Of a DNA stretch of 64,000 bases, positions 8,043 to 28,914 are shown piece by piece. Position 1 is the stretch's first letter. Every line of letters starts with the position of its first letter. Where the stretch lies: contig NZ_JAIQDD010000010.1 of assembly GCF_020036995.1 (NCBI RefSeq), positions 161,433 through 225,432 of the forward strand, written 5' to 3'. The notes under the pieces are model-generated. The model was not told the origin of the DNA. It made no database searches and saw nothing but the letters and a program-made list of their open reading frames with translations. Both the position numbers and the translations under genes were made by a program. Source of the DNA: Corallococcus sp. AS-1-12. Lineage in GTDB: Bacteria > Myxococcota > Myxococcia > Myxococcales > Myxococcaceae.

Positions 8043-9678
8043 GCGGGTGTCCTCCCACGTCCAGCTCCCTCGCCAGCTCCGCCGCGAGCGACACCAGGTC
8101 GCGCCCCGGGGTGAGCTCCCACAGCTTCTTTCCCAGGACCTGCTTGACGCCCGCGTCCGGCGCGCGGCGGGCCTCCCAGACGCCCGCGACGCACGCCTCC
8201 GGCGGCAGCCGCGACACGGTCCTCCGGGCGACCTCCTCCCCGGCGCCCGCGAACAGCAGCGGCCCGGAGGCGCACCGCACGCCCGTCTCCAGCGACGACG
8301 ACGGCGGGCTGACCCCCTCCAACCCGAAGGAGGGCTCGTCCGGCGTGAAGCGCCGCACCCGCGTCACGCCCTCATGCTCGTCGCGCGGGGCCAACTGGAG
8401 GGGCAGCACCTGCCGGCGCACCGTCCACAGGCTCGCGTCCGGCAGCCGGTCCACCACCGCGCGCGCCAGCCGGGACATGGGCGCGTCCGGCGCGGCGTCG
8501 AAGCCCGGGCACACGACGGTGGCGGCGGGTCCGGCGGGAGGGCGGGCGTGGGGCGCGGCGCCCTGGAGGAAGGGCGTGAGCGCCTCGCGCACGCGCTGGG
8601 CCACGGCCTGCTGGTCCAGGGACGCCAGGCGCTGGCGCTGCGCCTCCACCACCCGCGAGCGCAGGGCGGGGTCGCGCTCCAGCACCGCCAGCAGCCCCGC
8701 CACCTGCGCGGGGTCGTCCGACAGGGTGGTGAGGCCCGCGCCGCCCATGGTCTCCGGCACCGCCGCGGCGCCGTAGGCCACCACCGGCACGCCCCGGTAC
8801 ATGGCCTCCAGCAGCGGCACGCCGAAGCCCTCGTGGCGGCTCATGGAGAGGTACGCGGTGGCGGAGGCGAAGCATGCGGACAACTGGGCGGCGTCCACCC
8901 GCCCCAGGAACACCACGCGATCCGGGCCCAGTTGCTCGCGCAGCGCCAGCACGGACGCGTCATAGGGCGCGCTGCTGTAGAGCGTCCCCGCCACCAGCAG
9001 CCGGCTCCGGGGCTGGTACAGGCGCTGGTAGGCGGTGAAGACGCGCAGCACGTCCTCCAGCCGCTTGCTGGGCACGGTGCGGCCCACGAAGAGCACGTTG
9101 GCGCACCCGTCCGCCATCTGCTCGCGCAGGGCCGCGTCCGGCGCCACGTTGAACGCGTTCCAGTCCACCGCGAAGGGCAGGACGCTCGCGTCCGGGTAGC
9201 CCGCGGCGGACAGCTCCTCCACGCTGAAGTGCGAGTAGGCCCAGGCGTGCGTCACGTGCTCGCGGAGCTGGAGCAGCTCCTCGCGCGCCAGCATGCAGCC
9301 GCGGGCGACGTGGCGGTCCGTGCCCTCGAAGAACCGCTCGGGCGTGACGTTGTGGTACAGCAGCGCCTTGCGCCCCTTGGCCTTGGCCACCAGCGGCACC
9401 AGCCGCGACTCGAAGCTGTGGTGGACGAGCAGCGCGGTGTCCCGGCCCGCGTCGCGGGCGTAGTCCAGGGCGGGGCGCACCTCGTCGCGGCACGCCTCGT
9501 CCCACTGCTCCGCGTAGATCTCCGACGCGTACCCCCACCCGCGCAGCAGGTCGCGCAGGTAGCGCACCTGGTTGCCCACGGCGTCGCCCCAGGCCAGCCG
9601 CGGCACGAGCTGGTGGACCGCTCCGGCGCTCGAGGACGCGGTCCCTCGCTTGCTGTTCCAGAGGCTCACGTTGGGCAA
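8032..9678 (-). CDS. GT4-family glycosyltransferase (GT-B, Glycos_transf_1)
   Basis: C-terminal core FLGRVDAAQLSACFASATAYLSMSRHEGFGVPLLEAMYRGVPVVAYGAAAVPETMGGAG. The annotated first codon is TTG. Confidence 0.75.
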   Translation of the reverse strand: MPNVSLWNSKRGTASSSAGAVHQLVPRLAWGDAVGNQVRYLRDLLRGWGYASEIYAEQWDEACRDEVRPALDYARDAGRDTALLVHHSFESRLVPLVAKAKGRKALLYHNVTPERFFEGTDRHVARGCMLAREELLQLREHVTHAWAYSHFSVEELSAAGYPDASVLPFAVDWNAFNVAPDAALREQMADGCANVLFVGRTVPSKRLEDVLRVFTAYQRLYQPRSRLLVAGTLYSSAPYDASVLALREQLGPDRVVFLGRVDAAQLSACFASATAYLSMSRHEGFGVPLLEAMYRGVPVVAYGAAAVPETMGGAGLTTLSDDPAQVAGLLAVLERDPALRSRVVEAQRQRLASLDQQAVAQRVREALTPFLQGAAPHARPPAGPAATVVCPGFDAAPDAPMSRLARAVVDRLPDASLWTVRRQVLPLQLAPRDEHEGVTRVRRFTPDEPSFGLEGVSPPSSSLETGVRCASGPLLFAGAGEEVARRTVSRLPPEACVAGVWEARRAPDAGVKQVLGKKLWELTPGRDLVSLAAELARELDVGGHPHAR

Positions 9679-9792
9679 GGCATTTACCCCTGGCCCGGAC
9701 CGGCCACAAGTGGTCGCGCGCTTGCCTTGACGGGGATCCGTCCCTCCGCTACGGAGGGCGCTTTCTCCCGACGTACGAGTGGTGGCGTGTCA

Positions 9793-10818
9793 ATGAACGT
9801 CCTGGTGACAGGGGGCTGCGGCTTCATCGGCTCCAACCTGGTGAAGTACCTCCGCCGCGAGCGGCCCGACTGGAAGATCATCAACCTCGACAAGCTCACG
9901 TACGCGGGCAACCTCGAGACCCTCGCCGACCTGGAAGGCGACCCGAAGCACGTCTTCGTGCGCGGCGACATCGGCAACCGGGAGCTGGTGGAGCACCTGC
10001 TCGTCCAGCACGGCGTCGACGCCGTGATGCACCTGGCGGCCGAGAGCCACGTGGACCGCTCCATCCTGGGCCCGGAGGTGTTCATCAACACCAACGTGCT
10101 GGGCACCCAGCAGCTCCTGGAGGCCTGCCGCGCCCGGGGCGTGAAGCGCTTCCTGATGGTCTCCACCGACGAGGTCTACGGCTCGCTGGGCCCCACGGGC
10201 GCCTTCACGGAGACCTCTCCGCTGCAGCCCTCCAGCCCGTACTCCGCCTCCAAGACGTCCTCGGACCTCATCGCGCTGGCCTACCACCACACGTTCAAGA
10301 TGGACGTGGTGGTGACGCGCTGCTCGAACAACTACGGCCGCTACCAGTTCCCGGAGAAGCTCATCCCGCTGATGGTGGTGAACGCGCTGCACGACAAGCC
10401 GCTGCCCGTCTACGGCGACGGCGCCAACGTGCGCGACTGGCTCCACGTGGAGGACCACTGCCAGGGCCTGCTGGTGGCGCTGGAGAAGGGCCGCGCGGGC
10501 GAGGTCTACAACATCGGCGGCGGCTCCGAGCGGCGCAACATCGAGATCGTCAAGGGCATCCTGGGCCTGCTCAACAAGCCCGAGTCGCTCATCCAGTACG
10601 TGGCGGACCGGCCCGGCCATGACCGGCGCTACGCCATCGACCCCACGAAGATCCGCACGGAGCTGGGCTATCAGCCGAAGCACACCTTCGAGCAGGGGCT
10701 GGCGGAGACGGTGACCTGGTACGTGGAGCACCGCGCCTGGTGGGAGAGCGTCACCAGCGGCGCGTACCGCCAGTACTTCGACACCCAGTACAAGGCCCGT
10801 CTGCAGGGGCGGGGTTAG
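9793..10818 (+). CDS. rfbB: dTDP-glucose 4,6-dehydratase
   Basis: MNVLVTGGCGFIGSNLVKYL...YNIGGG...: classic RmlB N-terminus and SDR catalytic pattern, 341 aa. Confidence 0.9.
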   Translation: MNVLVTGGCGFIGSNLVKYLRRERPDWKIINLDKLTYAGNLETLADLEGDPKHVFVRGDIGNRELVEHLLVQHGVDAVMHLAAESHVDRSILGPEVFINTNVLGTQQLLEACRARGVKRFLMVSTDEVYGSLGPTGAFTETSPLQPSSPYSASKTSSDLIALAYHHTFKMDVVVTRCSNNYGRYQFPEKLIPLMVVNALHDKPLPVYGDGANVRDWLHVEDHCQGLLVALEKGRAGEVYNIGGGSERRNIEIVKGILGLLNKPESLIQYVADRPGHDRRYAIDPTKIRTELGYQPKHTFEQGLAETVTWYVEHRAWWESVTSGAYRQYFDTQYKARLQGRG

Positions 10819-14479: not shown

Positions 14480-14965
14480 TCACGGCAGGGGGGAGGTGAC
14501 GTAGTCCACCCCGTCGGAGTGGCAGCCGTGACAGGTCGAGTGGGCGCGGCCGTAGTAGTTCCGGGTGTAGTCGGGCCCGAAGCCCTCGTAGAAGATCCAG
14601 GTGTCCTTGCCGGGGCCTTCCGAGACCTTCACGTCCAGCGCGTGGCCCCGGAGCGTCCTCCCGTCGTCCTCGAAGAGCTCCTTCACCAGGATGCTGCCCA
14701 CGGGATGCGTGGCGTTGCCGTCGCGGAGCGAACGCGCGACGACGTCGTTGAAGAACACGCGGACCTTGCTGCCATGGGGCGCGCGTGTGTCGTGGACCGA
14801 GGGCTCCGCGAGCCAGGAGGAGTACTGGCCCGAGCGGACGAAGGCGGTGATGCCGGTCTCGGACGTGTCGATGCCCTGGACGACGCCGAGGCCCTCGTCC
14901 ACGGAGGAGGAGGGGCCGCAGGCGGTGGAGAACAGGACCATGAGCGGCAGGAGGTGGGCGCGCAT
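14480..14965 (-). CDS. Secreted small protein (probable lipoprotein) with a C-terminal CXXCH haem-c motif; possibly a cytochrome P460 / c-prime-beta-like protein
   Basis: Signal peptide MRAHLLPLMVLFSTAC. CHGCH lies 12 residues from the C-terminus. The size (161 aa) and the near-C-terminal position of the motif fit the P460 family. Confidence 0.55.
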   Translation of the reverse strand: MRAHLLPLMVLFSTACGPSSSVDEGLGVVQGIDTSETGITAFVRSGQYSSWLAEPSVHDTRAPHGSKVRVFFNDVVARSLRDGNATHPVGSILVKELFEDDGRTLRGHALDVKVSEGPGKDTWIFYEGFGPDYTRNYYGRAHSTCHGCHSDGVDYVTSPLP

Positions 14966-15013: not shown

Positions 15014-15634
15014 TCAGCGCGGCGCGTAGTTGTGGCTCAGGTCGAAGACGAGCGTCTTCACGATGGGCGGGATGGAGAGCTCGATGCGGCCCCGGTTCAG
15101 GTCTCCGTGGGTGACCTGGTAGGAGAGGCCGCCGAACTCGTCATCGAAGGTGTAGTTGTCGTTGTCGAAGATGGAGATTTCGAGCGGGTAGCGCTGCAGG
15201 TTGGAGGTGATGATCTGGCAGCCGCCGGTGCGCCATTCGGGATCCCAGCTCTCGCTTTCCTCGGTGCGGGTGCGTTCGGGAGCGGAGGGGCAGTTCATCT
15301 CCACGACGACGTCCGGCGGGGAGCCGTCGGAGTCCCAGTCCTCGCCCGTGTCCGGGTCGGCGTCCGCGATGGTGGCGTACCGGGGCTGGATGAAGGTGCG
15401 CATCACGCCCACGTAGCAGGTGTGCTGGTCGAGCCGGCAGACACTGCCCTCCGCGCAGGGTTCACAGACGCTGCCATCGGGGCCGCATTCCGAGTCGCTC
15501 CGGAACGAGATGCACTCGTTGAACGAGGAGCAGCACCCGTCCGCGCAGTTCTCCGGGGTGCAGTCGTAGGGACCGCAGGCGGGGAGCCACAGCGCGCACA
15601 TCAGGATGAACAGCCAACCGCCGAGGACTTTCAT
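15014..15634 (-). CDS. Cys-rich secreted lipoprotein, paralogue A of a two-member family in this window
   Basis: Lipobox LPAC. Fourteen Cys in the N-terminal 60 residues. Shares DWDSDGSPPDVVVEMNCP and the ...RTFIQPRYATIA block with the ORF at 19704-20363. Confidence 0.6.
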   Translation of the reverse strand: MKVLGGWLFILMCALWLPACGPYDCTPENCADGCCSSFNECISFRSDSECGPDGSVCEPCAEGSVCRLDQHTCYVGVMRTFIQPRYATIADADPDTGEDWDSDGSPPDVVVEMNCPSAPERTRTEESESWDPEWRTGGCQIITSNLQRYPLEISIFDNDNYTFDDEFGGLSYQVTHGDLNRGRIELSIPPIVKTLVFDLSHNYAPR

Positions 15635-16915: not shown

Positions 16916-18694
16916 TCAGGGCCGCGGGGGAGGGGAGACCGCGGCCATGATGTACCGGGGCAGGAGCTCCTCGCGGAACTTCCGCCAGAGGGAGACGTGG
17001 TTGTAGTTGCCCGCGGTGAAGAGCACGACGAGGTCCAGCTCCGGGACGACCATCACGAGCTGGCCACCGTTCCCGCTGGCTTCGTACTGCGAATACACCC
17101 GGTCACCGACGCGAAGCTCATGGCGCCACCACGTGTAGCCATAGGTTCGCCCGTCTGGCATCGTCGCCTGTTTCGCGACGGAGCGTTCCACCCAGCGCTG
17201 GCTGACCACGCGCTTCCCGTTCCAGGTGCCGCCGGAGAGGTAGAGCTGCCCGAGCTTCAGGGCGTCACGAGGGCGCATGTAGATGCCGCCACCCAGGTAC
17301 TGCTCACCGTCGGGCATGAGGTCCAGGTGGTAGCCGCGCATCTGGAGGGGCGTGGCGACGTTCTTCGTGAAGAACTCGGGGATCCAGGTACGGGTGGTGT
17401 TGCGGAGGACGCCGCCGAGGAGGTTGATGTTCGCGGAGCAGTACACGGCCTTCCCGCCGCCGGGAGCGCGGACCATGGGGAGGTCCAGCGTGTACTTGTA
17501 CCAATCCGGTACGGAGTCCTCGAGCCGGTCCTCGTTGCCGGGTGACTCTGGATTGTCGTCGTCACAGGCCAGGCCCGTCGCCATGGTCATCAGGTGCGCG
17601 ACGGTGACCTTGCGCTTGCGAGCGTCCAGGTTGGAGAGCTTGCCCTTGTACTCAGGGAAGAGTGAGACGACGGGCGTGTCCACGGTGAACGGGGCGCCCT
17701 GGTCCAGGGCGATGCCGATGAGCAGGGACGCATAGGACTTGGAGGAGGACCGCAGGTCGTGGGGACGCTCCTTGTCGAAGCCCTGGAAGTACTCTTCGAC
17801 GATGAGCTTTCCGTGGCGCGCGATGAGCAGGCCCTGGATGGCGGGCACGGACTCCGGGCTCGGTTCCTGGTCGAGGATGCGCTGCACGAGCTGCTGGAGC
17901 GGCTGGACGTCCATGCCGACGTCCGCAGGGGAGGCCGTGGTCCAGCCATCGTCCTCCGCGATGGGCTTCTGGTAGGCGTAGGGGCCAGGAGCAGGAGTGC
18001 GGGAGTAGAGCCCCACGGCCTGCGAGCGGTCCCGACGAGTGAAGTCGAAGCTCGTGTCAAAGGGAGGGTAGGGGAGAGACAGCCGTCCGGACTGCTCGTC
18101 GAACGTGCCTTCAATCTGGGTGTCACTCTTGGTGTCCGTGAGCCGGACCGTGCGGTCCTGAAGCTCCACACGGAACAGCATCCGGTTGCCGAAGTTCCGC
18201 TCCGGGTTGCGAATGAACGCCGTCACGGAGCCGTCAGGCTGCTTCTGGACGACAAGATACAGCGAGAACCGGTCCTCCAGCGGAGCCACGTTGCCGCGCC
18301 AGACACCCGGCTGGAGCGCGCGCAGTTCCACGGGAGAGGCGAACTTCATGCCGCTCATGAGCACACGCGGTTGGATCCAGTGACCCGTGATGCTCTGACT
18401 GTTCTCCATCAACGTCGCTCGGAGTTCTCCTCCTGGGAAGACGACGGACACCTTGCAGCCCTCGAACCGGGCAGGAACATCGAATCCGCCGATGCGCGCG
18501 CGCCAGGTGTCCCCATGCCGGACCAGCGTCAGCTCACCCTGAACCTGAGGCCCAAGAATACGCTCACTGCCCCAGATGCCCACCAACGCCTCCGCAGACA
18601 CGGGGACAGCGCCGACATGGAAAGGCAGCAGCGCCAACAGGAGCCCGATGAGCCTTCGGGAGCTGGAGTGCACGGTGGATGCGTGGAGGGTCAT
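16916..18694 (-). CDS. Secreted serine hydrolase of the beta-lactamase/PBP-like superfamily
   Basis: Signal peptide. SSSKS (S-x-x-K) active-site motif after an N-terminal ~270-aa extension; 592 aa. Confidence 0.7.
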   Translation of the reverse strand: MTLHASTVHSSSRRLIGLLLALLPFHVGAVPVSAEALVGIWGSERILGPQVQGELTLVRHGDTWRARIGGFDVPARFEGCKVSVVFPGGELRATLMENSQSITGHWIQPRVLMSGMKFASPVELRALQPGVWRGNVAPLEDRFSLYLVVQKQPDGSVTAFIRNPERNFGNRMLFRVELQDRTVRLTDTKSDTQIEGTFDEQSGRLSLPYPPFDTSFDFTRRDRSQAVGLYSRTPAPGPYAYQKPIAEDDGWTTASPADVGMDVQPLQQLVQRILDQEPSPESVPAIQGLLIARHGKLIVEEYFQGFDKERPHDLRSSSKSYASLLIGIALDQGAPFTVDTPVVSLFPEYKGKLSNLDARKRKVTVAHLMTMATGLACDDDNPESPGNEDRLEDSVPDWYKYTLDLPMVRAPGGGKAVYCSANINLLGGVLRNTTRTWIPEFFTKNVATPLQMRGYHLDLMPDGEQYLGGGIYMRPRDALKLGQLYLSGGTWNGKRVVSQRWVERSVAKQATMPDGRTYGYTWWRHELRVGDRVYSQYEASGNGGQLVMVVPELDLVVLFTAGNYNHVSLWRKFREELLPRYIMAAVSPPPRP

Positions 18695-19716
18695 CGAATG
18701 CCTTTGGTTCTGGATGTTATAGCCCGGTCATGCGATCCGACCTGGCAGAACGCTGGCTCACACCCGATGGTCAGCGCCGGCGCGAGCGCTTGATCGCCTC
18801 GGGATTTCAAGGACCCTGGCGTGAAGTCCTCAAGGGCTTTCCGGGAGCAGATGCATTGGGACCCCACGTGGGGGATCTCCGAGGCATCGACCTCGCTCAG
18901 GAAGAGCTACCGGGCGCGGAGTTCGTTCATGTTCGGCTCGATGGCGCCCGCCTGGATGACTGCGGGCTCAACGAGGCGCGGCTCGACTTCACCACGCTGT
19001 CTGGTGCCTCGCTGACCTGGGCGCGCATGGAGCGCGCCAGCCTGATGGCTTGCGCCGCGATGGCCACGTGCTGGGACGATGCTTCCTTGGAAGGGGCAGT
19101 CCTCACGGCTTCAAACCTGGTTCACGGCTCATTCCGTCGCGCCCGACTTCAGGGCGCCCGTTTGACCGCAGCGACGTTGATGAAGGCGGACCTGCGCTGC
19201 GCTGATCTCCGAGGCGCGGAGTTGTCCTTCTGTGACATGGAGGAAGCGTGCGTCGCGGGTGTTCGCACGGATCGGCCTCGCACCTATGGGCGGGCAGGGC
19301 TGGGCAATGCGGACGTGAGCTATTACCGGGATCATGGCGGGTACCCATCATTCATGGATGCCATCCTGCTCGACCCGGGTATGCGCGCGCTCCGATGGTT
19401 GGACAGGAAGGAAATCCTGATGCATGTGGAAGCAGCGGTCGAGATGAGCCCCGCGGTGGATGCTGAAATCCTCGCGCTCCTCCTGGATCCAGAATTTGAG
19501 GCAGCGGCGCGCTTACGACTCGAGGCCCCGGATGAGCTGCGGTACGAGGCTGCCTCCAGCCTCATGTGGGCTCTTGGCTTGGATCAAAGCAAGAATGTGT
19601 GGGGACGCTCAGGGGTGTCGATTTGTCAGCGCTGGATGGCAAACCTCCGCAAGAACATGGCCGCCAGCATCCAAAAACGCTGGCGGCGGGCCGAGGTGTC
19701 CGTCTATTCGGCGTAG
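18679..19716 (+). CDS. Pentapeptide-repeat protein
   Basis: Runs of A(D/N)L.x pentapeptides (ARLDDCGLNEARLDFTTLSGASLTWARMERASLMAC...ADLRCADLRGAELSFCDMEEAC). An alternative ATG start is at 18730. Confidence 0.6.
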   Translation: MRGGSSNAFGSGCYSPVMRSDLAERWLTPDGQRRRERLIASGFQGPWREVLKGFPGADALGPHVGDLRGIDLAQEELPGAEFVHVRLDGARLDDCGLNEARLDFTTLSGASLTWARMERASLMACAAMATCWDDASLEGAVLTASNLVHGSFRRARLQGARLTAATLMKADLRCADLRGAELSFCDMEEACVAGVRTDRPRTYGRAGLGNADVSYYRDHGGYPSFMDAILLDPGMRALRWLDRKEILMHVEAAVEMSPAVDAEILALLLDPEFEAAARLRLEAPDELRYEAASSLMWALGLDQSKNVWGRSGVSICQRWMANLRKNMAASIQKRWRRAEVSVYSA

Positions 19717-20363
19717 TATGTGGTGATCTGGAGGGCCAAGGAGAGCAACGCACCGGAACTCGTGAACTCCACGACGCCACGGTCAATGTCGGCTCGGGTC
19801 ATCTGATACTGCGCAGACGCAATCGGGTCGTCAAAGAGGGTGTCAACGTCAATGACGGTGAACTGGATGGGGGCCGAAAGCAGATCGGTACTCAGGACGT
19901 CGCATGCCCCCTGCGTCCACGTAGGGGTGAAGCTTTCAACTTCCTCCGAAGGGGGCGCAGGCTGTGCGTTGGGACAGGACAGCTTGACCACGACATCCGG
20001 TGGCGAGCCATCTACGTCCCAGTCACTGTTGTCAGCAGGATCCTGCGGAGCGATCGTGGCGCGCAGGGGCTGGATCTTCGTGCGAATGGTGGGAGTGTAG
20101 CACTGTTGCTGTGACGGATGGCAGATGGTCCCGGTCGCGCACTTCGCGCATTTGGTGCCGGTAACACCGCACGCGTCGTTGGTACGAACTTCGACGCACT
20201 GGTTCGTGGTCGGATCGCAGCAGCCTGCACAATTCGCTGCAGTACAGATTTCTTCGAGTGGCGGGTTCTCCGTGATGGGGCCTGAGCTTGAGTCTTCGGG
20301 CCCACAGCCTGATAGCAAGAGAATCGACGTCAGCCCAAGAAGAATTCGGTTTTTGAATGTCAT
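19704..20363 (-). CDS. Cys-rich secreted lipoprotein, paralogue B
   Basis: Lipobox LSGC. A Cys-rich N-terminal region. Shares DWDVDGSPPDVVVKLSCP and the ...TPTIRTKIQPLRATIA block with 15014-15634. Visibly lower GC than paralogue A. Confidence 0.6.
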   Translation of the reverse strand: MTFKNRILLGLTSILLLSGCGPEDSSSGPITENPPLEEICTAANCAGCCDPTTNQCVEVRTNDACGVTGTKCAKCATGTICHPSQQQCYTPTIRTKIQPLRATIAPQDPADNSDWDVDGSPPDVVVKLSCPNAQPAPPSEEVESFTPTWTQGACDVLSTDLLSAPIQFTVIDVDTLFDDPIASAQYQMTRADIDRGVVEFTSSGALLSLALQITTYYAE

Positions 20364-20369
20364 TGATTG

Positions 20370-22097
20370 TTAGTTGAGGTGGAGAACCAACACGCGGGTG
20401 CCTTTGTCCATGCGAACTTCAGCGGTGACCATCCGAGTCACAGGAATGCTCGCGACCTGCGCCCTTCTGTTGCTGGGCGTGGGCGTGATGACGATGGGCG
20501 CAGGGTTCGGATACCCCAGGGCCGTGATGGTTGGGGCATCCGCGTAGCCCACGAGGTACAGGGATCCATCCGAGAGCGCGCGATGAAGCTCAATCCCCTC
20601 CTGGATGGGGCCATAGATGGGTGTGTCCGCGCTGTAGGTGGGAACGGTGCTCATCGGTACAAACGCGTAGCGTCCCCTGGGAAGCTGCGAGACGCGAGCC
20701 CCACGCTCGGCGTCCGAAGCGGCGACGACCTGATGCTGCTGGCGAACGTTTCTGAGCGTGCTCGCGAGTGCCGGGACCGGAGCAGCCGTCGGGGGCTGCG
20801 GCTGGACAGGTCTCAGATTGCGCGGAGTCTGAACGACAAAGACGTCATTGTTGACGCTTTTGCTCGGGGATGGCCAGACCGCTGCCACGCCGCCAGCAAT
20901 CAGCGCGGCAGCAGCAAACAGCAGGATTCTCTTGGAGCCTGATTTCGAAGGGCTGCCTGTGCCGTCCGTCTTCGGAGCGGACCGGGAAACGGAACGATCC
21001 GAAGCGGAAGGCACAGGCTCGGGTGGCTTCGCCGCACTTGAGTGGGGCGAGGTCGCCGGCCCAGGGGCTCTGGTGGCCGAGGCGATTGGGATGGATGGCG
21101 ACGGTGGCTGTCGGACTGTGCTTGGAGGGGGCGACTGCGGGGCAACGGATGCGCCAAAGTGTTGACGCAGTTCAGGGAAGAATTTGTGGCAATCGATTCC
21201 GCCATAACAACGAAGCCCTTTGTTGCCTCGTAAATTGGCAACCCTGCTGAAGAGCGTCGGATTGCAGGCCTCGATTACAGCGTCATTCTTCTCGTAGAAA
21301 CCCCAGAGGATGTCGACATCCTTGTGTCTGTCGACGTCAATCGCCGCGAGTGTCTGGGTGAAGACATCGTCCCATCCGCCGTATCCGATAACGACAAGTG
21401 TGTGGCTTTGAAGGATCTGGATCAGCTCCGCAGAGACGAGTTTGCGCTCGCGACCAAGCTGGATGCCAGTGTGCAACGTAGGCGAGTCATGCCAGTAGCC
21501 GTGAAGGTGGATGATGTGCGTGGATTTGGAAGAGGAAGGAACCGTCTGCCCGAACGGGCTGTCGTGAGTCACGATCGTGCGATGGAAATCACCGCCAGCC
21601 ACCTTCACCGATGCTGAGATGAGGGGATCAAAATTCGTGGTCAAGACGGGGCCAAACGTATCGGCTCTCTCCACCAGCAATCTTCCGAGATGCTCCGTCG
21701 CCGGAGGTAAGGCCCATCCGCCATAATCCAGATCCAGTTCGTCGTCAGTCGCTACTCCATCGCGTTGGCGGTCCACCCGTGCGCGAAGCACAGCCTCTCG
21801 AACAACCTTCTCGGAGACTTTCTTGTCCTCAAGGCCTTGCACGAAATGCATGGCCCATTGGTATCTGTTCTCTTTGGTGTGCTCGCGCTCCGTGTCGAAT
21901 CTCGCCTTGAATCCGGTCGGGACGTGCTCGCGGATGAGATCCAGCATCGCCTCTACCCCAGGCACCTGGGGGGCGTCGGCTCGTTCCTGCGTCGACAAGG
22001 GGGAACCGACCAGAAACGCGATTTTCCGGCTTTTGGCGGCAGTGATGACAGCGTTGGGGAGAGCATCCTTGGGATGCAGGAACGAATAGGAACTCAT
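20370..22097 (-). CDS. SIR2_2-family (defence-type SIR2/NADase-like) protein with a Pro-rich linker, one TM helix and a ~190-aa extracytoplasmic C-terminal domain
   Basis: Motifs IAFLVGSPLS, VLTTNFDPLIS, IIHLHGYW and LVVIGYGGWDDVF match the SIR2_2 signature blocks. TM helix KRILLFAAAALIAGGVAAVW. GC is much lower than the window average. Confidence 0.75.
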   Translation of the reverse strand: MSSYSFLHPKDALPNAVITAAKSRKIAFLVGSPLSTQERADAPQVPGVEAMLDLIREHVPTGFKARFDTEREHTKENRYQWAMHFVQGLEDKKVSEKVVREAVLRARVDRQRDGVATDDELDLDYGGWALPPATEHLGRLLVERADTFGPVLTTNFDPLISASVKVAGGDFHRTIVTHDSPFGQTVPSSSKSTHIIHLHGYWHDSPTLHTGIQLGRERKLVSAELIQILQSHTLVVIGYGGWDDVFTQTLAAIDVDRHKDVDILWGFYEKNDAVIEACNPTLFSRVANLRGNKGLRCYGGIDCHKFFPELRQHFGASVAPQSPPPSTVRQPPSPSIPIASATRAPGPATSPHSSAAKPPEPVPSASDRSVSRSAPKTDGTGSPSKSGSKRILLFAAAALIAGGVAAVWPSPSKSVNNDVFVVQTPRNLRPVQPQPPTAAPVPALASTLRNVRQQHQVVAASDAERGARVSQLPRGRYAFVPMSTVPTYSADTPIYGPIQEGIELHRALSDGSLYLVGYADAPTITALGYPNPAPIVITPTPSNRRAQVASIPVTRMVTAEVRMDKGTRVLVLHLN

Positions 22098-22136
22098 CGA
22101 GGGCGAACGCTATCAGAACCGCAGGCGGGGCCTAAT

Positions 22137-23702
22137 TCATGCGGCTCGCTCACTTGGTCGACCTTGTTCCTCCTCTTGGAGTGCCAATGTCTTCCGGTAT
22201 TCCGCAGCCTCGGCCGCCCGGGTCAGTTCAAACTCACCGTGATGCTTGCGGACTGCCTCCGCGATCTCATCCAGGCCGACGCGGAAGAACTCCTTTCGCT
22301 CATTGATGCGGTTGACTCGCCGGTTCGCGAAGGCCTTGTGCAGGGCGTTCTCCAGGGCAGGGGCGTCCGAGGTCCGGATGATGGCGTGGACATCGAACTC
22401 GAACGGCACCGAGGCATCTCCAAGTTCATCGATGCGGTCCTGGGGGACCAATCGTCGGGTCATCCCCAGCTTGAACACGCCCTCGCCGAAGGAACCAATA
22501 TTGGAGATGACGTAGACGTGCCCGGTGCGGGTGAGCTGTGCCTGGGAGATGGCGCGCTGCTTCTCCATGTCTTCTGCCACACGGCGCTCCAGCTCCGCGA
22601 TGCGCTCCATCAGCTTCTGCTGCTCCGAGCCCTTCGCCTGCTCGTAGTCCGCCCGCGCCTTGGCCAGCGCTTCTGCATCGCGCTTCGCTTCGCGCTCCGC
22701 TTCCAGCTTCGCCTTCTCCAACTCGCGTTGGGCGGCTTCCTCCTCACGCATCTGCTCCCGGATCCGGCGCTGCTCGTCACGCTCCTGCTGCACCTTCTCC
22801 TCGTACTCGTACGCGAGCATCAGCTCCTCGACCTTGAGCTTGACGTAGCGCCTGGCGATGACGCACTGCTGGATCTCCGCGAGACCATTGATGGCGGCGG
22901 CTGCCTTCTCGATGCGCGTCTCCATGGCCTTGACGTTCTTGTAGGACACCTTCGCTACACACGCGTCCGCCTCGCCATTGAAGGCCCGGAGCATCAGCTT
23001 CAAGGTCCGCTCAATCTGCTTCTTGCCTTCCGCCTTGCTTCCATTCACTTCCCACTGAATGGAGCACGTGGCGGCTTCCTTGTTCTTCAGCATCTGCTTC
23101 TGAGCGTCGCGGATCTTCTCCAGCCGGTCCTCGTACTCCTTGACCGACGCCAGCGCGTACACCGGTTTGTAGAAGCCGAAGGAGAGCAGGACCTCCTCTT
23201 CCTCCAGTGCCTTCAACTCGGCCCTCAGGCGGGCGATGCCTGACTCCAGGTTGGTCCGCTCAGCGTTCGCCTGCTTTCGACGGGCTTCTGCCTCCTCCAT
23301 GGCGCGCGTCGCGCTTTGCGTCGTCCGGCTCGTCTCTTCGCGGAGCCGGTTCAACTCCGCTTTCGCTCGGCCCTGCTCAGCGGCGATGGCCTGCTCAACG
23401 TCCGCTTTTGCCCGGGCAAGCTCGGTCTCTACCCGCTTCCGCTCCGCCGCCAGTGCACTGTCCGCTTCGCTCCGTGCCTTCGCCAAATCGTCCTGGACCC
23501 GCTTCTGTTCCGCGGCCATCGCGGTGGTCGCGTCCGTGCGGGCCCGCGTCAACTCCTCCGCGACCCGGCGCCGTTCGGCCTCCAGGTCCAGGATGGGCTT
23601 GAATCGTTCCTGGACGGCTTTGAGCCGGCTCTGTGTCCGCAGCCACAAGCCAAGGAGCAACAGGCCCAGAATGCCCAGGCCAATGGCGATGATCGTTGTC
23701 AT
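22137..23702 (-). CDS. Membrane-anchored coiled-coil / DUF4041 / T5orf172 (MUG113, GIY-YIG-like nuclease) protein
   Basis: Start at the internal ATG (MTTIIAIGLGILGLLLLGLWL = N-terminal TM helix), 13 nt after the upstream stop. It has ~180 aa of coiled coil, a DUF4041 block (LLSFGFYKPVYALASVKEYE...LRAFNGEADACVAKVSYKNV) and a T5orf172 block (GHVYVISNIGSFGEGVFKLGMTRRLVPQDRIDELGDASVPFEFDVHAIIRT...RINERKEFFRV). Confidence 0.75.
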   Translation of the reverse strand: MTTIIAIGLGILGLLLLGLWLRTQSRLKAVQERFKPILDLEAERRRVAEELTRARTDATTAMAAEQKRVQDDLAKARSEADSALAAERKRVETELARAKADVEQAIAAEQGRAKAELNRLREETSRTTQSATRAMEEAEARRKQANAERTNLESGIARLRAELKALEEEEVLLSFGFYKPVYALASVKEYEDRLEKIRDAQKQMLKNKEAATCSIQWEVNGSKAEGKKQIERTLKLMLRAFNGEADACVAKVSYKNVKAMETRIEKAAAAINGLAEIQQCVIARRYVKLKVEELMLAYEYEEKVQQERDEQRRIREQMREEEAAQRELEKAKLEAEREAKRDAEALAKARADYEQAKGSEQQKLMERIAELERRVAEDMEKQRAISQAQLTRTGHVYVISNIGSFGEGVFKLGMTRRLVPQDRIDELGDASVPFEFDVHAIIRTSDAPALENALHKAFANRRVNRINERKEFFRVGLDEIAEAVRKHHGEFELTRAAEAAEYRKTLALQEEEQGRPSERAA

Positions 23703-23715
23703 GGATGTCTCCTGT

Positions 23716-26700
23716 TCAGGCGCTGACGGCCCGCATCTGATGCTCCACCGGGGACTCTTCACGCACGACGGCTGGCAGCTCAGCCGCCTCCTCCCGAAGG
23801 AGCTCCTCGACGCGCGCGACGATCCGGGCGACCTCTTCTGAAGGCGAGCGGAACCAGTCCGTGGACCAGATGCGGTGAAGCTTCCACCCCAGGCCCTTCA
23901 ACACCTGGTCCCGGAGCCGGTCCCGGTCCCGCGCGGAACGCGACGAGTGGTACCGCTCGCCGTCACACTCGACACCGAGGATGTACCGGCCTGGTTGCTG
24001 GGGATGCCGGAGGGCCATGTCGATGAAGTAGCCCGCAACGCCTACCTGCGGAACCACCTCGAAGCCCCGCGCCGCGAGCGCCTTCGCGACGGCGATTTCG
24101 AAGTCGGAATCCGGTGGACGGCCGCTCCCCACGCCGTGCGCCACCTTCTCTCCCTTGGCTTCGGACAGGTACCGTTGCAGGACGCGCATCCCACGGGGAC
24201 TGCTCTCCTGGACCTTGAGCTGTGACGGGTCGAAGGACGCGAACACCGTCAGTGCACACCGCGCCCTCGTGAAGAGGACGTTCAACCGGCGGTATCCGTC
24301 CGCCTGGTTGATGGGCCCGAAGTTCATCCGGAAGCGCTCGTTCTTGTCGGGACCGAACGTGACCGACACGAAGATGGCGTCGCGCTCGTCGCCTTGCACG
24401 TTCTCCAGGTTCTTCACGTCGAAGGGCATGGGTGACTTCTCCCACTTCGCCAGGAAGGCTCGGAGGGTCGCGTCGTTCTTCTCCTCGGCAGTCACCAGGT
24501 CGTCGATGAGATCCCGCTGCTTCGAATTCAGCGTGACGACCAGCAGGCTCTGCTCAGGACGTGTCCGCGCGTGCTCCTTCACCTTCGCCAGCACTTCGCG
24601 GGCTTCGGGGACGTTTCGGTTGGACTCGTACAGTCCTCCGTCCACTTTGTGGAAGCGCAGCCCCAAACCTTCCAGTTGCTCACCCGGTGCAGGGAAGGTG
24701 ATGAGGTCGCCGTTGTAGAACTCACGATTGCTGAAGGCGATGAGCGAGGGGTGACGTGAACGGTAATGCCAGCGCAGCATGCGCATGGGGAACCGCTCCG
24801 CCGCCGCCGTGAGGATGCTCTCTGAATCCTCCAGGAAGGACGGGCCCTGAGCCTCGTCTCCCGCCTCGTCGTTGGACTCTGTGTCCTCCTGTTCCATCTG
24901 GGCGAAGAAGCTGGTGGGAGGGAGTTGCTCCGGGTCGCCCACTACCACCAACTGTCTCCCTCGCGCGATGGCGCCCAGCGCATCTTCGGGACGCATCTGG
25001 CTGGCCTCGTCCATCACGACCAGGTCGAAGGTCAACTGGCCGGCGGGCAGGTACTGGGCGACCGACTGCGGACCCATCATGAAACACGGCATCAGCGTCT
25101 GGAGCGCACTGCCGGCACGGGCGACCAGTTCACGAATGGGGAGGTGCCGCTGCTTCTTTCCCAACTCGTGCCGCAGAAGATGGGTCTCCGTCATACCCGC
25201 CACTTTCGCCGAGGACACACCCGGAGGAACCGGACGCTGGCTGAGTTGACGTGCCAGGTATCGGCCCTGCCTTTCGATGCAATGCGTGTCCAGGCGTGCG
25301 AACTCCTCTCTCTGGGAGGCATGAACGGCGCCCGTGAACTGGTCGAGCTCGGGTTGGTCTCGCAGGATGGCTTCCGCCAGGGAGCGGAAGAAGACAGCGT
25401 CGAAGGCCGCGACCAGCCGTTCCGGCTCCAGGCCCGGACGTGTGTCGACGCGCTCCAGGAACCCAGCGGTGCTCCGCGCTCGCGCGACGGCACGCCGCTG
25501 CCGTTGATACGCGCACCAGGCTGGAAGCGTCGCGGACTGGCTTCGGGCCTGGCGCAGTCGCAAGACCGTCGATTGGAGCGGCTTCTCGGCGGCGAGATCC
25601 TCCCAGGTGCCCTGGGCCATCCTTCCCAGCTCCCGGGCTTGGGTTGCGGACTGTCTGTAGGCACTGAGGGCTGTCTCCAATTCGTTCGTGATGGCGAGCA
25701 GGTCCGCGTGCCTTCGTGGCGTGTCCTCTCGTAGCAGCCACTCCGCCAGCCCTTCAGGGAGCGGCGCCGCGAGGAGGTCATCAACATGTCGGAGGATGCT
25801 TCGGGGACCCGCTAGGGAGGTTTTCCGCCCCTGGTAGGCCACCCCTGGCAGGGTCGCCGCGGAAGCGTGCGCTTCCAGCCGGTCTGCGGCTTCGCACGCT
25901 TCACGCACCCGGCGCAGTTGTCCCTGGAGTTGGGAGAGGGTCAGGGACGGCGGGGCATCTCCCTTCCGTGCCCAGTTCAGGACCTGGCTCAGGTGCTTCA
26001 GCAGGGCGTCGAGGCTGTCCTGGGCCTTTCCGCAGGACTCGGTGTTCCAGGGGGCGCTCGGCAGCCCCATGCGCGTCGAGGCTTCTTGCACGAAAGTGCT
26101 TACGTCTCGGACTTGGGACAGTTCTTCGCTCTTCGCGCGGACCATCGCCAGGATCTCGCGCCAATGGCTCGGGGAACGCTCCAACACTGCTCGGCGTAGC
26201 TCCAAACCTCGCTCACCCATGGGGAGGATCAATGCGTCGATGTTCCGGTATGCGTCCAACCACGAAAGGATTCGGTCGAAGCGTGTCTCGACCCCCTGGA
26301 AGCGGGCGCCAAGGGTCGCTTTCAAGGTCGCGTCCTCCTGGAACCGCTCCCGTGCCGCGTAATGAGCCAGCAGGTCGTTGTAGCCCTGAACCAGTACGGG
26401 CCTTGTTGGACGTACGCCATGTGCCATGGCCTGGAAGTCCCGCCGCGCGGCGCGCCAAGCGCTCGAGAGCCAGGGGATGAATTGCGCGGTTGAAACCGCA
26501 ACCGCATGGGACTTGAGCGTCGCGAGGGGAGGAACGAGTTCGGGCATGAAGCGCACCGCGAGCGCCCGTGCCTGATCTTTCAATTCCGTACAGGTGCTGT
26601 CAGCCTTCCGAAGTGTCTCCTCGGCTTCGCGTTCGATCCAGCACGGGTCCCGCCACTCCAAAGTGGTGTCGTCCAGGGCGGCCATCGCCTCGACGACGCG

Positions 26701-28914
26701 GGCGAAAGACTGGAGCTGCTGGGGCGTCCAGCGCGTGACGTCGACTTCCAGGCGGGAGGCCACGTCGGCCGCGAACCGGCGAGCCTGCGCCAGGATTCGA
26801 GCAGCGGCCTCCACCGCTTCATGCGCGCGCGTCAGTGTCACGAGCGTGGTGTCAGGCGAGAGCAGACGCAGGGCCATGTCGAGGACGGCTTCCGCGCCGC
26901 GCAGCGCGGACGCGGTCAGGTCTTCCTGGGCACGCCAGCCTGCCTCCAACCCCGCCCACCGGGCCTGGACCGCTTCAATGGCATCAAGCAGGGCTCGTAA
27001 TCCCTCTCTCTGCGTGGAATCGAGCAGGGCAGGGACCAGCGTCGCGGGAGTCCCTTCTGGAAGCCGTGGCAGGACTCGGACGTTGGAGATCAGCGCATCC
27101 ACCGCGAGTGCGCTCGAGCTGGGCGTGACGCCCGTGCGGACGGTGAAGGCCGCCAGCGCCTTCTCCAGGAGCAGCGCGGACTCCTCCCAGGTGGCGATAC
27201 GCTGAACGAGTGTCTGACGGTCCTTGTCGGTCAGCGCATCGTTCGTCACACCCGCCCAGGGGTGGGCACTGAGGATGGGCGCGACGCGGCGAACATCCCC
27301 AAGCTGCGCCGCGAGACTCCGAACCGCGTCGCGAACCTCCGATAGCGCATGGGTAGACATGCCTTCGGCGCCCTCGAAGCGGAGGCCTTCCAGCTCCACG
27401 ACCGCGTCTCCCAGTTCCGATTCCGCGCGACTGACCTTCCAGAACACGTCATGCGGTGACATGCCGAGTGTCCCGAACGGCTTGTGCATTCGCTCGGTAT
27501 GCGCGCGCAGGATGCCCGCCGCGTTCGAGACCTGTTCGGTGAGCGGGCGGGGAGCGGTCGCGCTCGCATCCAGGTTGAGTCGGCGACGCAGGTCCTCCAT
27601 GAACTGCTGTTTCTGGGTCTTGTGGCTGTGCAACTCCAGGCAGAACTCGCCGAGCCCCGCATGCTGGAGGCGGCGTGAGACGACCTCCAACGCCGCCAAC
27701 TTCTGCGTGACGAACAGCACGGTCTTGCCCGCCGCCAACGCCGCGCCAATGAGGTTGGTGATGGTCTGTGATTTCCCGGTGCCGGGCGGCCCTTGCACCA
27801 CCAGATTCTCGCCCCGGAGCACGTCCACCAACACGCTGTGCTGGCTGCTGTCCGCGTCCGTGATGAGTGGCGGCGGATTGACCTCTTGCGAGTCCAAATC
27901 GTAGACCTCGCTCCGGCGCTCCCGGCTGCCCCCGCCACCTCCGCCAGGTTCGTTCGCCTCCGCCTGTCCTCCCATCAGCGTCCGGACGAGCGGGTTCGCC
28001 AGCATGGGACTGTTCTGAGGCCAGCGGCTGGGCTCCAGGTCCCGCCACATCAGGAGCCGCCCGAAGGACAGGAGCGTCAGGGTCACCTGCCGCTCCAGGC
28101 TCCAGCCAGGGCGCAGGCCTTTGAGCAGCGCCGTCACCTTGTCGAAGTACGCCTCCAGGCCCTCCTCCGCGGAGAAGGCCGGCAGCGTGATGCCGAACTC
28201 CTGCCGCAGCTTCTCCTGGAGCGTGAGGTTCGAGTCGATGGACTCGCCTTCATTGTAGTCCACCTCGTAGGAGTGGACCTGCGTCTCCGGGTGGGCCTGG
28301 CCGCGTTTGAGACTCACCGGCATGAGCACGAGTGGAGCGCTGCGAGGCTTCTCCTGCCGCGTGTCGCCGGACTCGTACCAGCGCAGGAACCCGAAGACGA
28401 AGTGGAGCAGATTGGCCCCGGTCTCCTGGATGGCCGTTTGCGCGAGGCCCTGGAGTCGGTGCAGGTGGCTCTCCAGATCTTCCGGGAAGTACAACGTCTG
28501 GAGGTGGCGGTCCTGGTGCTTGCGAGGATTGCTGCCGCTCTCTGCCGGGACCGCCTTGGGCAGCTCATACCGGGTATCGATGCCGAGCTTCTTCGCCTGT
28601 TGAAGCAGCAACTTCTGCCGGGCGTCCTTGCTTGGGGCCTCCTCCGTCGTCATCGAAAACACCACCGTCGCGGCGGCGGGATCGAAGTCCTCCTCTTCCT
28701 CGGAGGCTTGCTCCGGTGGCATCACTGGAAGGAACGTGAGCGCGCGGTGGTTGCTCAGGCGCTCGAAGACGACACCTGGCAGTTCATCCACAATGCGCAG
28801 CGACGTCCGGGCCGTGTGCTTGAAGTTGAGGAGTCGGTTGGTTGCGCTCAAATCCAGCAACCGGGTGCGTTGCCGCTGAAGCTCTTTCAGCAGGACCGAG
28901 TCGTGCGGATTCAT
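23716..28914 (-). CDS. Giant DUF4011 / Upf1-like SF1 helicase (AAA_11+AAA_12) / Vsr-like (DUF559, PD-(D/E)xK) endonuclease / DUF3320 protein (Hhe-like)
   Basis: Start at the internal ATG (MNPHDSVLLKEL...). Walker A GPPGTGKSQT, DEAD-like VVMDEASQ, LRWHYRSRHPSLIAFSNREFYNGDL, and C-terminal YILGVECDGERYHSSRSARDRDRLRDQVLKGLGWKLHRIWSTDWF (Vsr/DUF559 signature). 1733 aa. Confidence 0.8.
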   Translation of the reverse strand: MNPHDSVLLKELQRQRTRLLDLSATNRLLNFKHTARTSLRIVDELPGVVFERLSNHRALTFLPVMPPEQASEEEEDFDPAAATVVFSMTTEEAPSKDARQKLLLQQAKKLGIDTRYELPKAVPAESGSNPRKHQDRHLQTLYFPEDLESHLHRLQGLAQTAIQETGANLLHFVFGFLRWYESGDTRQEKPRSAPLVLMPVSLKRGQAHPETQVHSYEVDYNEGESIDSNLTLQEKLRQEFGITLPAFSAEEGLEAYFDKVTALLKGLRPGWSLERQVTLTLLSFGRLLMWRDLEPSRWPQNSPMLANPLVRTLMGGQAEANEPGGGGGGSRERRSEVYDLDSQEVNPPPLITDADSSQHSVLVDVLRGENLVVQGPPGTGKSQTITNLIGAALAAGKTVLFVTQKLAALEVVSRRLQHAGLGEFCLELHSHKTQKQQFMEDLRRRLNLDASATAPRPLTEQVSNAAGILRAHTERMHKPFGTLGMSPHDVFWKVSRAESELGDAVVELEGLRFEGAEGMSTHALSEVRDAVRSLAAQLGDVRRVAPILSAHPWAGVTNDALTDKDRQTLVQRIATWEESALLLEKALAAFTVRTGVTPSSSALAVDALISNVRVLPRLPEGTPATLVPALLDSTQREGLRALLDAIEAVQARWAGLEAGWRAQEDLTASALRGAEAVLDMALRLLSPDTTLVTLTRAHEAVEAAARILAQARRFAADVASRLEVDVTRWTPQQLQSFARVVEAMAALDDTTLEWRDPCWIEREAEETLRKADSTCTELKDQARALAVRFMPELVPPLATLKSHAVAVSTAQFIPWLSSAWRAARRDFQAMAHGVRPTRPVLVQGYNDLLAHYAARERFQEDATLKATLGARFQGVETRFDRILSWLDAYRNIDALILPMGERGLELRRAVLERSPSHWREILAMVRAKSEELSQVRDVSTFVQEASTRMGLPSAPWNTESCGKAQDSLDALLKHLSQVLNWARKGDAPPSLTLSQLQGQLRRVREACEAADRLEAHASAATLPGVAYQGRKTSLAGPRSILRHVDDLLAAPLPEGLAEWLLREDTPRRHADLLAITNELETALSAYRQSATQARELGRMAQGTWEDLAAEKPLQSTVLRLRQARSQSATLPAWCAYQRQRRAVARARSTAGFLERVDTRPGLEPERLVAAFDAVFFRSLAEAILRDQPELDQFTGAVHASQREEFARLDTHCIERQGRYLARQLSQRPVPPGVSSAKVAGMTETHLLRHELGKKQRHLPIRELVARAGSALQTLMPCFMMGPQSVAQYLPAGQLTFDLVVMDEASQMRPEDALGAIARGRQLVVVGDPEQLPPTSFFAQMEQEDTESNDEAGDEAQGPSFLEDSESILTAAAERFPMRMLRWHYRSRHPSLIAFSNREFYNGDLITFPAPGEQLEGLGLRFHKVDGGLYESNRNVPEAREVLAKVKEHARTRPEQSLLVVTLNSKQRDLIDDLVTAEEKNDATLRAFLAKWEKSPMPFDVKNLENVQGDERDAIFVSVTFGPDKNERFRMNFGPINQADGYRRLNVLFTRARCALTVFASFDPSQLKVQESSPRGMRVLQRYLSEAKGEKVAHGVGSGRPPDSDFEIAVAKALAARGFEVVPQVGVAGYFIDMALRHPQQPGRYILGVECDGERYHSSRSARDRDRLRDQVLKGLGWKLHRIWSTDWFRSPSEEVARIVARVEELLREEAAELPAVVREESPVEHQMRAVSA

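Follow-up and report, generated by a model that had tools for sequence, protein, structure and literature searches.

The stretch of 64,000 nucleotides from Corallococcus sp. AS-1-12 analysed here (contig NZ_JAIQDD010000010.1, positions 161,433 to 225,432; hereafter the window) carries on its minus strand a block of genes that had been described as a three-gene antiphage operon: an Hhe-like helicase-nuclease, a membrane-associated DUF4041/T5orf172 nuclease and a membrane-anchored SIR2 protein, possibly acting together as one composite system. The unit turned out to have a fourth member, as a co-oriented open reading frame (ORF) of 219 aa (19704..20363) starts 6 nt past the SIR2 stop codon (junction TAAcaatcaATG). 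This ORF, hereafter gene 4, was left out of the original prediction, and it is, judging from sequence and gene order, the actual partner of the SIR2 gene. The pair recurs in other genomes away from the two nuclease genes, and its SIR2 domain is exchanged for other enzyme domains in related proteins. Our preferred reading, which we hold with moderate confidence, is that the island combines an Hhe-family nuclease, a homologue of the SNIPE nuclease, and a periplasm-sensing pair with an NAD+-depleting output, made up of the SIR2 protein and the lipoprotein encoded by gene 4.

The SIR2 gene (gene 3; 20370..22097, minus strand, 575 aa) encodes, in this order, a SIR2 domain (residues ~1-315; 21153..22097, as delimited by Pfam, alignment and profile), a Pro/Ser-rich linker, the basic segment KSGSKR, a single transmembrane (TM) helix (I391-W408; 20874..20927) and a C-terminal domain (CTD) of ~130 residues (20373..20759). 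The SIR2_2 match scored above the Pfam cut-off (31.2 bits versus 24.5, E=2.8e-7, residues 151-253) and one TM helix could be read from the translation, so that the TM-anchored SIR2 protein with an external tail stands as originally proposed. The motifs TTNFDPL (N155, D157), HLHGYW (H199) and YGGWDD do not vary among 12 aligned homologues, the most distant of which has 31% identity; we take N155 and H199, which lie in the TTNxD and HLHG motifs, to be the catalytic residues of the domain. A profile of the SIR2 family aligned TTNFDPL and HLHGYW to the motifs of human FAM118B, a weak match (E=0.004) and the sole one obtained in the PDB, where a search with the single SIR2-domain sequence returned nothing. 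Among proteins devoid of the TM helix and CTD, the nearest relatives of the domain are SIR2-NB-ARC/STAND-TPR fusions. PADLOC yielded only weak, domain-level SIR2 matches (SIR2 associated with prokaryotic Argonaute (pAgo), E=1.4e-8, and PDC-S65), and NCBIfam had no match for the SIR2 of gene 3. In the translation, a signal peptide is absent and basic residues flank the TM helix on its N-terminal side; because of these two features, and because the enzyme requires cytoplasmic NAD+, the protein is most likely oriented N-in, C-out, with a cytoplasmic SIR2 domain and an extracytoplasmic CTD. By analogy with other SIR2 effectors, its output would be NAD+ depletion.

The gene 4 product starts with a lipobox (LLLSGC, Cys20), which is followed by ten further invariant Cys (residues 40-88) and by a C-terminal domain containing eight invariant Asp (108, 116, 118, 123, 172, 174, 178 and 179). 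Two motifs of this domain, DVDGSPPDVVV and IDVDTLFDD, presumably correspond to two Ca-binding loops of C2 domains, which they resemble. Pfam C2 matched three of eight members of the family, and the AlphaFold model, whose mean pLDDT is 61, reached 75-85 in the C-terminal beta-sandwich. As modelled, the C-terminal domain is a C2 beta-sandwich with Asp-rich loops of the Ca-binding type. A paralogue of gene 4 (206 aa, 37% identity, E=5e-52, Pfam C2 22.4 bits) is present elsewhere in the window (15014-15634, minus strand), in the conserved flank after an HxlR regulator gene, and is kept in Corallococcus species that are devoid of the island. The 161-aa protein encoded next to it (14480-14965, minus strand) was considered as the other half of an effector-less pair in the core genome; this candidate was rejected, as the protein is a lipoprotein with a CxxCH (haem-type) motif and not a short CTD protein.

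To determine how CTD and lipoprotein are distributed, hidden Markov models (HMMs) of the CTD and of gene 4 were scanned over every locus fetched (the window CTD matched its HMM with E=3e-57). A full-length gene 4 homologue was found directly downstream, on the same strand, at each of the 16 loci with a CTD (16/16, from ~6 lineages), the spacing between the two genes ranging from a 4-nt overlap to a 94-nt gap. The distant homologues in loci L006/L007 (40% identity, E=4e-37, 4-nt overlap), L005 (38% over the C-terminal 141 aa, E=7e-33, 73-nt gap to the full 217-aa ORF) and L038 (41% identity, E=5e-53, 46-nt gap) illustrate this conservation. Look-ups begun from CTD proteins outside Corallococcus (P0011, P0012, P0013 and P0134) gave the same result, with the lipoprotein downstream in four of four. 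By contrast, a SIR2-TM protein that ends in another C-terminal domain (P0014, locus L039) lacks a lipoprotein partner, which argues that the lipoprotein tracks the CTD and not the SIR2 domain. A metagenome scan with the lipoprotein alignment returned solo or fragmentary C2-lipoprotein matches only and no new pairs. The correlated divergence of CTD and lipoprotein (r ~0.97 versus 0.93) was dropped as evidence of contact between them, because phylogeny dominates these correlations. At two of these loci, a 410-aa protein with an HSDR_N domain (type I restriction R-subunit N-terminal, nuclease-like) precedes the SIR2-TM-CTD gene (L005 3902-5134; L038 282-1517). It has no PADLOC match, and its identity between the two loci is 87%, compared with 62% for the SIR2 domain, 68% for the CTD and 81% for the lipoprotein; it could be a third component in this clade or merely a neighbour.

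The CTD itself belongs to a large family. An exhaustive profile search of 1.84 billion representatives gave 503 clusters at E<=0.001, and the AlphaFold model of the domain is confident (pLDDT 92.7, pTM 0.86), showing a compact alpha/beta domain for which Pfam, NCBIfam, PADLOC, the PDB and viral structures gave no match. Architectures were counted in the best 148 of the 503 clusters, to which the following figures refer. A recognisable enzyme domain precedes the CTD in 25 of the 148, and in 20 of these 25 a clear hydrophobic helix lies between the two. The 25 enzyme domains comprise SIR2 (5), TIR (TIR_2; 6), PNP_UDP_1 (PNP; 7), metallophosphoesterase (Metallophos; 2) and FAD-Rossmann (5) domains. 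In PADLOC, the PNP domains matched the CBASS PN-superfamily effector and PDC-M60C, the TIR domains matched pAgo-associated and ThsB-type TIRs, the metallophosphoesterase domains matched the CBASS calcineurin-like endonuclease effector and PDC-S60, and the FAD-Rossmann domain matched Lamassu LmuA (E=9e-91).

Effector exchange was also seen at loci with the lipoprotein. On a 4.25-Mb contig of a myxobacterial-type metagenome-assembled genome (MAG; L019), a TIR_2 (E=1e-21)-TM-CTD gene lies directly upstream of a lipoprotein homologue. This gene (8625-9870) is split over two frames near 8980-9070, which may mark either a pseudogene or an indel error of the long-read MAG; an intact relative, P0194, has 382 aa. 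Downstream of a PNP-TM-CTD gene (P0134) in L041/L042 lies a gene 4 homologue of 212 aa (37% identity, E=5e-45), and in L041 the pair adjoins an Imm52/PDC-M17B gene. The TIR and PNP versions thus bring to three the effector types that share the TM-CTD plus lipoprotein module. CTD proteins that carry a signal peptide and two or three tandem CTDs (P0132, P0167 and P0204) are secreted, which supports the extracytoplasmic location of the domain, and the roles of the CTD clearly extend beyond effector-fused receptors. Among the representatives P0132, P0167, P0204 and P0266 is one protein of 3506 aa with a partial CTD match.

Taken in terms of mechanism, our preferred reading is as follows. The SIR2 domain would reside in the cytoplasm, and the periplasm would hold the 130-aa CTD and the lipid-anchored lipoprotein with its C2 domain, which has Asp loops of the Ca-binding type. 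CTD and lipoprotein, possibly in contact with each other, would sense an event at the envelope, for instance penetration by a phage tail or injection of DNA, a disturbance of the membrane or its lipids, or a leak of ions. The change in sensor state would be relayed through the single TM helix, receptor clustering or release being the most plausible route, and would switch on the SIR2 NADase; by analogy with SIR2 and TIR systems, the resulting NAD+ depletion would stop the infected cell (abortive infection) or arrest growth. The genomic context offers some support, as the pair adjoins two defence-family genes in the window and the PDC-M17B/Imm52 gene in L041.

We also examined whether the helicase-nuclease, the SNIPE homologue and the SIR2 protein might act as one three-component defence system, as had been proposed. 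The three genes are co-oriented, separated by gaps of only 13 and 39 nt with no terminator-like site in them, and the order Hhe-SNIPE-SIR2-lipoprotein recurs in several Corallococcus at one locus, running from a TGT/ABC-F flank to a beta-lactamase/glutathione S-transferase (GST)/HxlR flank: we found it in C. exiguus, C. coralloides, an unclassified Corallococcus (L003), C. sicarius and C. praedator (L002, L003, L008, L010 and L011), and in C. interemptor a short contig (L009) covers only the 3' end of the SNIPE gene, the SIR2 gene and the lipoprotein gene. The neighbourhood is therefore conserved across species, but only at a single chromosomal locus and within one genus, a pattern that fits vertical inheritance. 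Several findings speak against a composite system. In Corallococcus sp. RDP092CA (L017), ABC-F is accompanied by Hhe (86%) and SNIPE (90%) but SIR2 and gene 4 are missing, whereas the SIR2-TM-CTD homologues with 32-33% identity on unrelated contigs (L005, L006/L007 and L038) have kept the lipoprotein with neither Hhe nor SNIPE nearby; plasmid Hhe loci of Vibrio and Klebsiella have no SNIPE (DUF4041) neighbour; and SNIPE is sufficient alone in E. coli (PMC13190303). Divergence from the window is discordant as well: 71% identity for Hhe versus 92% for SNIPE in C. exiguus (L002), and 46% for SIR2 versus 87% for SNIPE in C. sicarius (L010). Three more species (L014-L016) are devoid of all four genes at the same ABC-F flank and carry other cargo there. 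Hhe, SNIPE and the SIR2-lipoprotein pair are three separable modules, and we regard joint action of the three proteins as very improbable. The tight spacing may still be compatible with functional cross-talk among the four Corallococcus genes, which counts against treating the pair as wholly autonomous.

The same loci disclosed a mosaic pattern. Between congeners, SIR2 identity falls to 46% while SNIPE stays at 83-90%. Compared with window 19704-28914, the close relatives among L002, L003, L010 and L011 show 72-78% identity in the SIR2 domain, 93-95% in the CTD and 89-91% in the lipoprotein; the Hhe protein is 71% identical in L002 and 93% in L003. This mosaic suggests recombination breakpoints inside the island or an unusually fast change of the SIR2 domain. 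A contig labelled Hymenobacter sp. MAG (L004, GCA_004211055.1) was rejected as an independent example of the arrangement, because its assembly is probably chimeric: a Corallococcus-type SIR2 protein and a SNIPE C-terminus with 90% identity to that of the window are encoded in the first ~2.1 kb (GC 0.615), at the junction the SIR2 ORF is left without its CTD, and Rep3 and SocA_Panacea genes lie on the remainder (GC 0.528). The idea of a fixed defence hotspot was likewise discarded, the cargo of L014 and L016 being mixed (Kelch, AAA_21 ATPase-methyltransferase, Ser/Thr kinase and GGDEF proteins); the locus is variable and not clearly a dedicated defence hotspot. In C. carmarthensis (L014 3647-5545, minus strand), an AAA_21 ATPase of the OLD/Gabija/PARIS type is fused to a methyltransferase, with a Kelch-repeat protein and a Ser/Thr kinase encoded nearby.

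A serious rival to phage sensing, which we nevertheless consider unlikely, holds that the trigger is not a phage: the pair would be an envelope-sensing suicide or growth-arrest module responding to interbacterial attack (outer-membrane-exchange toxins, type VI secretion, predation), or serving kin discrimination or developmental cell death. Myxobacteria exchange lipoproteins between cells, and the SIR2 partner belongs to this protein class. Moreover, all paired loci are apparently from Myxococcota, the neighbours in L041 are of the polymorphic-toxin type (Imm52, DUF2380, Gmx_para_CXXCG), solo lipoprotein paralogues occur in the core genome, and viral contigs contained no homologue of the lipoprotein family (the CTD was not searched there). 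The effector set fused to the CTD (SIR2, TIR, PNP, metallophosphoesterase nuclease and Lamassu-type flavin-containing monooxygenase (FMO)) is instead the anti-phage set of PADLOC, and in the window the pair directly follows two genes of phage-defence families; both observations are compatible with either trigger. A regulatory role seems to us improbable. SIR2 would then be a non-lethal enzyme, such as a deacylase or ADP-ribosyltransferase, that signals envelope stress; the lipoprotein would be its co-sensor, and the location in a defence island would be incidental. In favour of this role, deacetylases are found among SIR2 domains, the majority of CTD proteins are short and effector-less, and the flanking genes (beta-lactamase-fold, GST, HxlR) are ordinary. 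However, the domain is of the SIR2_2 type with nearest relatives fused to STAND NTPases, its place can be taken by domains without deacylase activity (TIR, PNP nucleosidase and nuclease-type), and the gene is accessory and fast-evolving.

Several observations weigh against our preferred reading, i.e. a periplasm-sensing pair with an NAD+-depleting output. Most CTD representatives among the best 148 of 503 are either short, consisting of an anchor or signal peptide and the CTD without an effector domain, or fragments, and the lipoprotein family has solo members in the core genome, such as the one at 15014-15634 of the window; neither domain is therefore specific to defence. Outside the window the context is weakly defence-like, as the neighbours in L006 and L019 have no PADLOC matches. 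The sample of pairs is narrow, because all paired loci look myxobacterial (GC 0.59-0.67). Finally, the SIR2_2 match is modest (E=2.8e-7), the confidence of the lipoprotein model is low overall, though higher in its C2 part, and the predicted topology of gene 3 comes from reading the translation and not from a dedicated predictor.

The two upstream genes are members of known families. Gene 2 (22137..23702, minus strand, 521 aa) encodes an N-terminal TM helix, a coiled coil, DUF4041 (PF13250, now named 'SNIPE' in Pfam; E=1.4e-20) and a T5orf172 nuclease domain of the GIY-YIG type (PF10544, E=1.7e-17). Its N-terminus reads MTTIIAIGLGILGLLLLGLWL in the translation, with the TM anchor at residues 4-21 (IIAIGLGILGLLLLGLWL). 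PADLOC PD-Lambda-1 matched it over profile positions 51-478 of 496 (E=2.2e-153) and PHROG 1847 with E=8e-141. These results uphold the membrane-bound DUF4041/T5orf172 nuclease that had been called, and, by sequence, place gene 2 as a new member of the characterised SNIPE/PD-lambda-1 family. SNIPE, encoded by a single gene, is a GIY-YIG nuclease of the inner membrane and cleaves phage DNA as it is injected (Saxton et al., Nature 2026; PMC13190303); the E. coli protein binds the tape measure protein, 59% of the homologues have one TM helix, and the N-region is the variable part of the family (PMC13190303). Gene 2 shares with SNIPE the N-terminal single TM helix, DUF4041, the T5orf172/GIY-YIG nuclease and a near full-length PD-Lambda-1 match; it differs in its myxobacterial origin and in its long coiled-coil N-region rich in Ala, Glu and Arg.

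Gene 1 (23716..28914, minus strand) encodes a protein of 1732 aa (1733 had been announced) that combines DUF4011 (PF13195, E=3.9e-34, residues 19-237), a superfamily 1 (SF1), Upf1-like helicase core (AAA_11, E=3e-15; AAA_12, E=4e-14) and an MTES_1575 endonuclease domain of the Vsr/DUF559-like type (E=3.8e-37, residues 1606-1702), all recognised by Pfam. The DUF559 match itself was weak (E=0.003, 17.8 bits, under the 20.6-bit cut-off). The predicted DUF4011, helicase and Vsr-like endonuclease parts and the Hhe likeness were thus recovered, but DUF3320 was not, Pfam giving no match at E<=0.01; the protein ends ~30 aa past the restriction endonuclease domain. In PADLOC, gene 1 scored 1265.6 bits with PDC-S37 and 946.7 bits with Hhe. 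The NCBIfam model Hhe_antiphage (NF042953) matched at 1447.6 bits over model positions 2-1701 of 1797, leaving the last ~96 positions unmatched; this score is under the 2000-bit equivalog cut-off, so that gene 1 is a homologue within the Hhe family and not a strict Hhe. Its C-terminal half also matched antiphage_ProA (NF058533; 1136.6 bits, under the 1500-bit cut-off). Gene 1 resembles Hhe, a defence system that consists of a single gene, in its DUF4011 N-terminus, Upf1-like SF1 helicase and C-terminal MTES_1575 domain, in its near end-to-end alignment to the model and in its 37-38% identity to annotated Hhe proteins on Vibrio and Klebsiella plasmids; it differs in falling under the equivalog cut-off, in the absence of the C-terminal ~100 model positions and of DUF3320, and in its higher score with PDC-S37. 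It is thus assigned, on domain content and alignment, as a new member of a known, Hhe-like family. Full-text literature searches found no mention of PDC-S37 and, in the literature searched, no description of the Pro system to which antiphage_ProA refers. DUF4011 helicases are not always accessory, since a large DUF4011 gene forms a core flank of a defence hotspot in P. aeruginosa (PMC10250203).

The layout of the block agreed with most of what had been described. The three minus-strand ORFs lie where they were placed, with the end coordinate 28914 exact, and the sequence contains the claimed 13-nt gap between genes 1 and 2 and 39-nt gap between genes 2 and 3. A consensus scan detected, near a gene end on the block's strand, a sole terminator-like site, a hairpin with a 12-bp stem and 8 GC pairs located 17 nt past the gene 4 stop (19687-19660), and none in the three intergenic gaps; a four-gene transcription unit is therefore likely, and the block is probably a co-transcribed accessory island of four genes. 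The predicted drop in GC was found (0.59-0.65 in the block versus 0.70-0.74 in distant parts of the window), the low-GC zone being broader than the block (~12-31 kb of the window). These features support an accessory, low-GC block of defence-type genes. The window sequence matches a Corallococcus chromosome of 9.45 Mb (GCA_042231085.1, CP102579.1), and beta-lactamase-fold, GST and HxlR genes flank the block. A pentapeptide-repeat ORF (18679-19716, plus strand) converges with gene 4, the two sharing 13 nt at the 3' end of gene 4; the source record splits this ORF into two fragments (159 and 144 aa), but it is a single 376-aa gene in L002 and L003.

PADLOC v2, NCBIfam 20 and Pfam do not contain the SIR2-TM-CTD plus C2-lipoprotein unit, newer defence catalogues lying outside this check, and full-text literature searches returned nothing relevant on a TM-anchored SIR2 or TIR protein with a lipoprotein or C2 partner. 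The proposal that the SIR2 architecture falls outside described systems is thereby borne out by defence-system, protein-family, structure and literature searches alike. The unit would represent NADase-effector immunity with a new extracytoplasmic sensor. To our knowledge, the SIR2 and TIR defence systems described so far detect infection from within the cytoplasm, their cues being phage proteins, nucleic acids or second messengers. More tentatively, the pair may belong to a wider, undescribed class of single-pass TM immune receptors, in which an extracytoplasmic domain without a detectable fold relative and a C2 lipoprotein of the Ca-binding type would detect infection or attack at the envelope and directly activate interchangeable cytoplasmic effectors (SIR2, TIR, PNP nucleosidase, metallophosphoesterase or Lamassu-type FMO), in a layout parallel to that of Toll-like receptors. 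If this is true, immunity by NAD+ depletion could be set off from outside the cytoplasm, as the genome enters or earlier; the receptors would form a modular family in which at least five effectors can replace one another; and a function could be given to bacterial C2 domains and to a widespread CTD (503 representative clusters) absent from the searched libraries. The block also shows that tight co-oriented packing of defence genes is not evidence of a composite system, the modules being cleanly separated by presence and absence in relatives.

Compared with known SIR2-effector systems (Thoeris ThsA, DSR1/DSR2, SIR2-HerA, SIR2-pAgo/SPARSA and SIR2-STAND/Avs-like), gene 3 has in common the SIR2_2-type domain with conserved Asn and His motifs. 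Thoeris joins SIR2 to SLOG with an adjacent TIR protein, ThsB, whereas Pfam and PADLOC found no SLOG domain, ThsA or ThsB for gene 3, whose neighbours are SNIPE and the lipoprotein. DSR1 and DSR2 are single-gene, large (~1000 aa or more) cytoplasmic SIR2 proteins with a C-terminal sensor; gene 3, at 575 aa and with a TM helix, had no DSR match in PADLOC. Neither a HerA helicase nor a pAgo partner is encoded beside it. Gene 3 is thus devoid of SLOG, HerA, pAgo, STAND and the DSR sensor, and is distinguished by its TM helix, novel CTD and separate lipoprotein. The lipoprotein in turn differs from proteins with well-known C2 domains (synaptotagmin, cPLA2, perforin) in being bacterial and periplasmic, with an N-terminal module of ten invariant Cys and a putative Ca2+ or lipid binding. 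The TIR-TM-CTD relatives (P0139, P0144, P0194 and L019) resemble Toll-like receptors in that one TM helix links an external domain to a TIR domain in the cytoplasm; the likeness is an analogy only, since their TIR domain is N-terminal (reversed polarity) and the ectodomain is unrelated to leucine-rich repeats. With Zorya ZorAB, Kiwa KwaA and SNIPE, the pair would have in common that infection is perceived at the envelope and not in the cytoplasm. It has no sequence or fold relation to them, and is instead a single-pass receptor with a lipoprotein, to which an output predicted to degrade NAD+ or nucleotides is fused directly.

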